Shown piece after piece: positions 32,401-35,144 of a DNA stretch of 64,000 bases. How positions within the stretch are numbered: position 1 is the stretch's first letter; each line of letters starts with the position of its first letter. Made by a program: the position numbers. The stretch lies in the NCBI RefSeq assembly GCF_058153355.1, contig NZ_CM177019.1; one strand, 5' to 3'.

Positions 32401-35144
32401 GACGGTCGTTAGCACCGGCGAATTTCTCGAAGTTGAAGCGAGGAATTTTGGTGACCACGTAGTCGATGGACGGCTCGAAGGAGGCCGGAGTACGCCCGCC
32501 GGTGATGTCGTTCATCAGCTCATCGAGGGTGTAACCTACCGCCAGTTTCGCCGCCACTTTGGCAATCGGGAAACCGGTGGCTTTCGACGCCAGCGCCGAA
32601 GAACGGGACACGCGCGGGTTCATTTCGATAACAATCAGGCGACCATTTTTCGGGTTCACCGCAAACTGGACGTTGGAACCACCGGTTTCAACGCCGATTT
32701 CACGCAGTACCGCCATCGAGGCGTTACGCATGATTTGATATTCTTTGTCGGTCAGCGTTTGGGCTGGCGCGACAGTGATGGAGTCACCGGTGTGGATGCC
32801 CATCGCATCGAAGTTTTCGATAGAGCAGACGATGATGCAGTTGTCGTTTTTATCACGCACCACTTCCATCTCGTACTCTTTCCAGCCGATCAGCGACTCA
32901 TCAATCAGCAGCTCTTTGGTTGGGGAGAGATCCAGACCGCGGGCGCAAATTTCTTCAAACTCTTCGCGGTTATAAGCGATACCACCACCGCTACCACCCA
33001 TGGTAAAGGATGGGCGAATAATGCACGGGAAGCCCACTTCAGCGGCAACTGCCAGCGCTTCTTCCATGGTGTGTGCGATACCAGAACGCGCAGTTTCCAG
33101 ACCGATTTTCTTCATCGCCACGTCGAAACGGCGGCGGTCTTCGGCTTTATCAATCGCATCGGCGGTGGCACCAATCATGGTGACGCCGAACTCTTCCAGC
33201 ACGCCCTGACGCTCCAGCTCCAGCGCACAGTTCAGCGCTGTCTGACCGCCCATCGTTGGCAACACCGCGTCCGGACGCTCTTTTTCAATAATCTTGCGTA
33301 CCACTTCCCAGTGAATCGGCTCGATGTAGGTCGCATCAGCCATTTCCGGGTCGGTCATGATGGTCGCTGGGTTGGAGTTCACCAGAATGACGCGGTAACC
33401 CTCTTCGCGCAGGGCTTTACATGCTTGCGCGCCAGAGTAGTCAAACTCACACGCCTGACCGATAACAATCGGGCCCGCACCCAGAATCAGGATACTTTTT
33501 ATATCTGTACGTTTTGGCATGGCTCTTTTACTCCTGATTACTTAGCGGTTTTACGGTACTGCTCAATTAACTCGATAAAGTGGTCGAACAACGGCGCTGC
33601 GTCGTGTGGACCAGGGCTGGCTTCCGGGTGACCCTGGAAGCTGAACGCCGGTTTATCGGTGCGATGAATGCCCTGTAACGTACCGTCGAACAGGGATTTA
33701 TGTGTGACACGCAGGTTTGCAGGTAATGTTGCTTCATCCACCGCAAAACCGTGGTTCTGGGCGGTGATCATCACCACGTTTTTCTCCACATCTTTAACCG
33801 GATGGTTGCCGCCGTGGTGACCAAATTTCATTTTGATGGTCTTCGCACCGCTCGCCAGCGCCAGCAGCTGATGACCGAGGCAGATGCCGAATACCGGAAT
33901 GTCGGTTTCGAGGAATTTCTGGATGGCAGTAATAGCGTAATCACACGGTGCCGGGTCGCCAGGACCGTTGGAGAGGAAGATGCCGTCTGGATTCATTTTC
34001 AGCACGTCTTCCGCAGAGGTTTGCGCCGGAACGATGGTCAGGCGGCAGCCTCTATCCACCAACATACGCAGGATGTTGCGCTTGGCACCAAAATCATAAG
34101 CCACAACGTGGAACGGCAGCTCGTCTTCTTTCTTCGCTTCTGGCAGGCCGCCGGTCAGCGTCCAGCTCCCTTGTGTCCAGCTATAGGATTCTGCGGTGGT
34201 CACTTCTTTTGCCAGATCCATGCCGTTCAGACCTGGGAACGCGCGGGCTTTTTCTAACGCCAGCGCCGCATCCGGGTTATCGCCTGCGATAATGCAGCCA
34301 TTCTGTGCGCCTTTCTCACGCAGTAAACGCGTCAGCTTACGGGTATCGATATCAGCAATCGCCACGATGTTATGGCGTTTAAGGTAAGAAGAGAGGTCTT
34401 CGGTATTACGGAAGTTGCTGGCAATCAGCGGCAGGTCGCGAATCACCAGACCTTGTGCATGTACCTGAGAAGATTCTTCATCGGCGTCATTAGTGCCGAC
34501 ATTGCCAATATGGGGATAAGTAAGAGTAACGATTTGACGAGAATAGGAAGGATCAGTGAGGATTTCTTGATAACCGGTCATTGAAGTATTGAAAACGACT
34601 TCCCCAACCGCCGAACCTGTTGCCCCTATGGCCCGACCGTGAAACTGGGTTCCGTCTTCCAGAACCAATAGCGCTGACTTAATCAAAACACCCTCCAGAG
34701 AATATTCACTCACTTTATTTGCATATTAATTCACAATGATGACGTAAATCAATGCAAATCTGCTTACCGACGAATTTCTGGCAAACGGCGGCATTCTGGA
34801 GATATGGGCGCTAAAAGTCAACTTAATGGCGGGATTTTTTATATTATTTTATAGCTCATGCATGTTTTACAGGCATTAAGCGACAAAAAGATCATATAAC
34901 CCGTTCTGGAAAACGCTTGCGCAGCAAGAAGATTGCATAAAATCAAAACGCGTAGAAAAAAGTGGACCAAATGGTCAAAATTTACATTAAAACAACAAAA
35001 ACAGAAGCGAAAACATGTTATTTTTAGCATGTTCCATGCTTTTATAAATAAAAAACTCAAAACAAAAGGGCTAAAAATTAAAGCCCTTTACAATCAATAT
35101 ATTAAATATGTTATTTTTGCATCATCACAAATGTTTTGTGGTTA

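Follow-up and report, generated by a model that had tools for sequence, protein, structure and literature searches.

Where translation of carA begins is the question raised by a 64,000-nucleotide (nt) stretch of contig NZ_CM177019.1 (RefSeq assembly GCF_058153355.1), the whole of which is called the window here. The gene encodes the small subunit of the glutamine-hydrolysing carbamoyl-phosphate synthase and lies on the minus strand; a mechanical longest-open-reading-frame rule over-extends it by nine codons into its own operator, whereas the public RefSeq annotation is already right. As read from the sequence, translation of carA almost certainly starts at the UUG codon 34686..34684 on the minus strand, with the tandem ARG-box operator of promoter P2 upstream of it. 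This arrangement is the textbook P2/TTG arrangement of Escherichia coli carAB—already known and nothing new. The observations made at this locus comprise the sequence anatomy, the identity to strain K-12, the N-termini in annotations and structures, and the conservation of the region. The features around the start are the following.

33538..34686, minus strand: carA coding sequence (CDS; glutamine-hydrolysing carbamoyl-phosphate synthase small subunit), 382 residues from the TTG, stop codon included.
34684..34686, minus strand: TTG (UUG) initiation codon of carA, the start annotated in RefSeq, invariant in 121 of 121 loci and given in PMC6245113.
34692..34696, minus strand: Shine–Dalgarno (SD) sequence GGAGG, followed by the 5-nt spacer GTGTT to the TTG.
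34711..34713, minus strand: in-frame GTG at the head of the mechanical 391-residue open reading frame (ORF; 33538..34713), lacking an SD sequence and occupying positions 2–4 of ARG box 2; not the real start.

On the minus strand, the start of carA reads TTG ATT AAG TCA GCG CTA TTG, which encodes (M)IKSALL; the segment from the operator through the first carA codons, 34740..34681, is ATCATTGTGAATTAATATGCAAATAAAGTGAGTGAATATTCTCTGGAGGGTGTTTTGATT. The best duplex with the anti-SD sequence within 20 nt has an energy of −9.8 kcal/mol for the TTG versus +0.4 kcal/mol for the upstream GTG. The SD sequence lies at a functional spacing from the UUG, and the frame offers no better start, the sole other start-type codon being the GTG without an SD sequence. 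An in-frame ATG is absent upstream because an in-frame TAA (34728..34726) closes the frame, and the nearby ATG on the minus strand (34724..34722) is out of frame with carA. The strong GGAGG 5 nt upstream would drive initiation at the UUG, and the 27 nt added by the longest-ORF caller would then be untranslated leader, which doubles as the promoter-proximal half of the operator at P2.

A profile search matches CarA to TIGR01368 with 507.9 bits (cutoff 307.35) and to NF009475 with 430 bits (cutoff 221), and both Pfam domains of the small subunit are found: PF00988 (CPSase_sm_chain, N-terminal) and PF00117 (class-I glutamine amidotransferase, C-terminal). The profile matches begin past the TTG, namely at residue 5 of the 382-residue protein for TIGR01368 and at residue 16 of the 391-residue ORF for PF00988. 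The catalytic triad C269 (GICLGHQ), H353, and E355 (GHPEA) is present in the alignment of CarA to 1CS0 and 1BXR. The partner ORF of 1072 residues (30302..33520, minus strand) follows 17 nt past the carA stop and carries the carB annotation in matching genomes.

Six distinct PDB sequences of the E. coli small subunit match the ORF (e.g., 1JDB, 1BXR, and 1CS0) at an E-value of about 1e-260. Five of them have 382 residues, begin with MIKSALL, and align to residues 10–391 of the long ORF; the sixth, 1A9X, has 379 residues and aligns to residues 11–389. The 9-residue upstream extension is covered by none of the six, their SEQRES N-termini, like the MIKSALL of RefSeq, being derived from the gene model and not from direct N-terminal analysis. 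In RefSeq, carA is a 1149-nt CDS from the same TTG both in K-12 (b0032, 29651..30799) and in strain 2013C-4282. The primary N-terminal study—Weyens et al. in Eur J Biochem, 1985—reportedly concluded that carA "initiates at a UUG codon." A review from 2018 likewise gives TTG as the initiation codon (PMC6245113), and a TTG start for carA has also been described in A. baumannii (PMC12525168).

A preliminary description of this stretch had already named the TTG as the start of carA, and the RefSeq CDS of 382 residues, the MIKSALL chains of the PDB, the review, the SD energy, and the 121 of 121 loci bear it out. The check that it proposed, an alignment to characterised CarA N-termini, was run, and five of the six PDB chains begin at the TTG-encoded MIKSALL, none with the extension. 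Its placement of the mechanical ORF start 27 nt further upstream is correct in distance but not in codon, the sequence having GTG (34713..34711) where ATG had been stated; the strand, which it left unstated, is the minus strand. Its appraisal as an annotation correction rather than a novelty is apt: a mechanical ORF call is corrected to a TTG that is already in RefSeq for K-12 and 2013C-4282.

Upstream of the SD sequence lie the two ARG boxes.

34718..34735, minus strand: ARG box 1, TGTGAATTAATATGCAAA, one mismatch to the consensus TNTGAATWWWWATTCANW; overlaps the putative −10 hexamer of P2 and its start near 34719.
34697..34714, minus strand: ARG box 2, AGTGAGTGAATATTCTCT, four mismatches to TNTGAATWWWWATTCANW; holds the spurious GTG and is identical to the K-12 operator.

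These are the two ARG-box-like 18-mers that the preliminary description had seen directly upstream; they were located 3 bp apart and identical to K-12, and their reading as the classic P2 operator architecture agrees with two 18-bp ARG boxes, 3 bp apart, at P2 (PMC6245113). The spacer between them is TAA. Box 1 is the best match to the consensus across the 64-kb window; box 2 is weak by consensus, yet it is the same as the characterised K-12 box. Box 2 ends 10 nt ahead of the TTG, and the gap is filled by GGAGG and the 5-nt spacer. A box with at most one mismatch, followed after 3 bp by a box with at most four, did not occur in any of 300 dinucleotide-preserving shuffles of the window, nor did it arise when the AT-rich intergenic region was shuffled 5000 times. 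The pair thus has the hallmarks of an ArgR operator: two 18-bp imperfect palindromes with a spacer in the range of 2–3 bp, forming a 39-bp unit that overlaps a core promoter with a putative hexamer.

Two promoters are arranged in tandem ahead of carA, and the carAB locus is a classic example of cumulative repression via such tandem promoters. The upstream promoter and the short RNA that starts from it are placed as follows.

34793..34821, minus strand: carAB promoter P1, pyrimidine-controlled, −35 TTGACT, 17-nt spacer, −10 CAGAAT; found by promoter scan, identical to K-12.
34734..34786, minus strand: ES003 (Rfam RF02750), a 53-nt short RNA, 87.4 bits versus a gathering score of 37.

The transcription start of P1 is G 34786 (GTTTGCC), matching the 5′ end of ES003 and K-12 position 29551. 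The start of P2 was placed near 34719 from its published spacing of 67 nt downstream of the P1 start (PMC6245113). Its putative hexamers are −10 TAATAT (34728..34723) and −35 TTGATT (34752..34747), separated by an 18-nt spacer; P2 was not listed in the promoter scan because its 8 of 12 consensus matches fall just under the threshold. By these coordinates, both the −10 hexamer and the start site of P2 fall within box 1, and box 2 extends from about +6 to +23. In K-12, P2 is repressed approximately 50-fold by a single ArgR hexamer that, with arginine bound, occupies two 18-bp ARG boxes 3 bp apart and excludes RNA polymerase, whereas P1, 67 nt upstream of P2, is unaffected by ArgR (PMC6245113); the exclusion of RNA polymerase at P2 is steric (PMC6524683, PMC2952853). 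By analogy with this literature on the identical K-12 sequence, from which ArgR binding, polymerase exclusion, and the promoter starts are taken over, arginine-bound hexameric ArgR would occupy both boxes of the present operator, covering the −10 region and the start site of P2, and RNA polymerase would be excluded because the boxes cover these elements. Transcripts from the upstream, pyrimidine-controlled P1 would read through.

The conservation of this layout was followed across Enterobacterales. One genome per species was scanned with a CarA peptide pattern that leaves third codon positions free; the sampled genera include Escherichia, Citrobacter, Klebsiella, Enterobacter, Yersinia, Serratia, Pantoea, Erwinia, Pectobacterium, Dickeya, Photorhabdus, Xenorhabdus, Providencia, and Budvicia. 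TTG stands at the homologous position in all 119 evaluable other species, and in 121 of 121 loci if the two E. coli loci are included. The GGAGG is nearly invariant throughout the order, and the E. coli layout of TTG, SD sequence, and boxes recurs in every genus sampled. The GAATTAATATGC core of box 1 is invariant, and the T-G-A and TTATTC cores of box 2 are conserved across genera. The codon at −27 behaves differently: among the 117 loci with enough upstream sequence, 78 have a start-type codon there in an open frame (61 GTG, 12 ATG, and 5 TTG), and 39 have lost it, either by an in-frame stop within the 27 nt (17) or by a non-start codon (22). In addition, the distance from the core of box 1 to the TTG is shifted by 1 to 3 nt in 24 of the 117 loci. 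These stops, non-start codons, and indels indicate that evolution treats the 27 nt as operator and SD sequence, not as codons.

Several points nevertheless weigh against a sole start at the UUG below a P2 operator. The frame is open from the GTG through the TTG in E. coli and in many relatives, and a start-type codon at −27 in an open frame is retained in the 78 of 117 Enterobacterales species mentioned above. Furthermore, the ARG boxes are described as overlapping the −35 region (PMC6245113), whereas the coordinate arithmetic gives the −10 hexamer and the start site of P2; two other papers speak just of promoter overlap (PMC6524683, PMC2952853), and the discrepancy is without effect on the conclusion. 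The first two observations would suit translation from the GTG 34713..34711, yielding a 391-residue CarA with the extension MSEYSLEGV, yet such a start is extremely improbable. The GTG lacks an SD sequence (+0.4 kcal/mol), and, with P2 starting near 34719, it would lie just approximately 6 nt from the 5′ end of the P2 messenger RNA (mRNA). Its presence is accounted for by the operator, since the consensus N-T-G at positions 2–4 of box 2 forces an NTG triplet at this site. The frame is interrupted by an in-frame stop in 17 species, lacks a start codon at −27 in 22, and is broken by indels, and RefSeq, the PDB, and the family profiles all begin at or after the TTG, which is also the start stated in PMC6245113.

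A division of labour between the two codons—the TTG as main start, with P1 transcripts, which begin 73 nt upstream of the GTG, giving a minor extended isoform in addition—is slightly easier to picture, because the GTG lies within P1 transcripts with leader sequence ahead of it and its frame is open in so many relatives. It is still very unlikely: the GTG has no SD sequence on these transcripts either, the extension shows no conservation at the coding level, with stops, non-start codons, and frame-shifting indels in one third of the species, and conservation tracks the ARG-box consensus instead of codon periodicity. As to the opposite side of the UUG, the abstract of Piette et al. from 1984 is said to have given the start as "UUG or AUU," leaving the ambiguity open. 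Initiation at the AUU of codon 2 in place of the UUG has a vanishingly small probability, given that codon 2 has changed to ATA in 16 of 111 species and to AAT or AGT in a few genera, whereas the TTG is invariant; this variation excludes AUU as a conserved start. The TTG lies at the optimal distance from the SD sequence, M-I-K stands in both the PDB and RefSeq, and PMC6245113 states TTG. The UUG is thus retained as the start of carA.

The closest known system is carAB of K-12 MG1655. The last approximately 190 bp of the control region—P1, ES003 and the leader, both ARG boxes, the SD sequence, the TTG, and the first codons—are identical base for base; the spacing between dapB and carA is likewise 456 bp, and CarA likewise has 382 residues. 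The differences from K-12 are those of background strain divergence only: the intergenic region departs from it towards dapB, the locus is approximately 96% identical overall, and CarA differs from the K-12 and PDB sequences at two residues, A167S and V284I. The control region is matched, between dapB and carA, in 5425 of 5426 complete E. coli genomes. That of K-12 was characterised by Piette 1984 and Charlier 1988 and 1992 and is reviewed in PMC6245113; carAB of Salmonella typhimurium (Kilstrup 1988; Lu 1992, cited in PMC6245113) belongs to a different species, and Salmonella is not among the aligned loci. Other ArgR operators of the arginine regulon (argF, argI, and argECBH among others; chromatin immunoprecipitation–exonuclease, ChIP-exo, PMC4381063) also consist of 39 bp with two 18-bp imperfect palindromes, a 2–3 bp spacer, and promoter overlap. 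The carA operator differs from them in two respects: of the two promoters arranged in tandem it controls just the downstream one, and its box 2, ending 10 nt ahead of the start codon, is part of the transcribed leader.

The constraint on the start extends into the coding sequence. The invariance of the TTG stands out, since synonymous sites in the rest of carA are free to vary among these species. In a codon alignment of 95 full-length carA genes from the same set of Enterobacterales species, the normalised synonymous-codon entropy has a mean of 0.63 and a window standard deviation of 0.14 across the gene. The lowest 13-codon window is that of codons 1–13 (34648..34686, minus strand) with an entropy of 0.12, and the entropy stays depressed to approximately codon 60. 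Fixed or nearly fixed codons are AAG3, TCA4, GTT8, GAA10, GGA12, ACC13, GGT17, CGG18, and GCC19, including the rare GGA12 and CGG18. Synonymous change is reportedly reduced at the 5′ ends of enterobacterial genes as a general phenomenon, according to Eyre-Walker and Bulmer in 1993. carA shares this effect in that synonymous variation is lowest over its first approximately 13 codons; it departs from it in that several codons, the rare GGA and CGG among them, are kept nearly fixed throughout the order, next to an invariant non-AUG start. carA thus appears to be an extreme instance of the general effect.

The synonymous constraint at the 5′ end of carA is real, but a hairpin as its explanation is unproven. 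The first 120 nt of the P2 mRNA, comprising the leader and the early coding sequence, fold no better than shuffled sequences (z = −0.47). RNAalifold, run on 47 genera, yields −11.5 kcal/mol (covariation term −0.25) and a hairpin GGUUCUG-GAAGA-CGGAACC over codons 7–13 that does not vary within the order. The peptide V-L-x-D-G-T forces four of the seven pairs, and the three pairs at synonymous sites are not complementary beyond chance in 114 distant metagenome carA genes (p = 0.12, 0.52, and 0.12). One subset reached p = 0.001–0.045, but a negative control reached p = 0.026 as well. Because its pairs are either forced by the peptide or unsupported, and because of this negative control, the hairpin is not claimed as a structure.

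Start codons beyond the order were surveyed in metagenome contigs scanned for FNTxMTGYQEI; the hits (loci L123-L242) were binned by CarA identity to the window, and start-type codons were taken from the interval 27–40 codons ahead of FNT, which is homologous to the E. coli start.

CarA identity 60–85%: 27 contigs, ATG available in 3, only GTG or TTG in 23.
CarA identity 50–60%: 42 contigs, ATG available in 30, only GTG or TTG in 7.
CarA identity below 50%: 38 contigs, ATG available in 31, only GTG or TTG in 6.

Weak initiation of carA as a lineage-wide trait fits this pattern, which is suggestive only, since starts were assigned heuristically on contigs without taxonomy and GTG is favoured in GC-rich genomes anyway. 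Since the TTG is found in 119 of 119 species, codons 1–13 are the most constrained of the gene, and 23 of the 27 closest non-enterobacterial relatives have only GTG or TTG, the UUG might be an actively maintained weak start inside an initiation region of approximately −13 to +40 that is "frozen" at the nucleotide level—a tentative reading that is rather doubtful at present. If true, carbamoyl-phosphate synthetase would be under an undescribed translational control or set-point, such as initiation that is sensitive to initiation factors or growth rate, atop the well-known transcriptional control; selection on the translation rate would give this much-studied regulatory system a further, post-transcriptional level. 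The order-wide invariance of the weak start and of the adjacent synonymous sites is the sole point at which this locus goes past the textbook.

As to the leader, ES003 runs from the exact start of P1 to the edge of ARG box 1. In K-12, it is a discrete short transcript (29551-29603) that is 133-fold down in stationary phase (PMC4676190). The position of its 3′ end beside the ArgR operator suggests a roadblock by ArgR or RNA polymerase as a candidate cause, or processing. The Rfam scan yielded no cis-regulatory family over the carA initiation region, just ES003 upstream and a sub-threshold DapZ-like match. The "carA motif" riboswitch candidate of Polynucleobacter (PMC8632094) is a different element, from β-proteobacteria. 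The DapZ match (RF02551; 35058..35138, minus strand) scores 31.3 bits versus a gathering score of 56 (E = 0.002) and lies in the region of the 3′ end and terminator of dapB. DapZ is a small RNA derived from the 3′ untranslated region of Salmonella dapB. Compared by eye, TTGACCATTTGGTCCA (34963..34978, minus strand) resembles the RutR (RUT) box far upstream of P1, and GCGCAAGCGTTTTCC (34908..34922, minus strand) resembles the PurR (PUR) box, both being candidate sites. Both stretches are conserved with K-12 in the alignment.

Among the 5426 complete E. coli genomes, none has a carB with more than 98.6% identity to that of the window, and the identity is 95–99% in 5337 records (approximately 95.5–96% in sampled hits). 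The carA control region is 99.9% identical to two strains only, 2013C-4282 and WL297, and the locus (window 30302..36700) is approximately 96% identical to K-12 and approximately 90% to E. albertii. By its sequence, the window comes from a lineage that is set apart from mainstream E. coli, and the differing best-match strains for neighbouring segments hint at recombination. Further along the window, the region 43991..49502 on the plus strand carries a fimbrial subunit ORF and a truncated chaperone–usher usher of 409 residues, apparently a fragment. An IS110-family transposase (52114..53289), a sulfatase (55025..56518), and a Tsx-like channel (56539..57300) follow, as do the sok antitoxin RNA (57765..57917) and tpke11 (59302..59379). 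Judged by K-12 coordinates, the content between the ileS/ribF side and hokC-sokC is presumably accessory, and sok and tpke11 appear to lie approximately 10 kb further from carA than the K-12 offset would predict.

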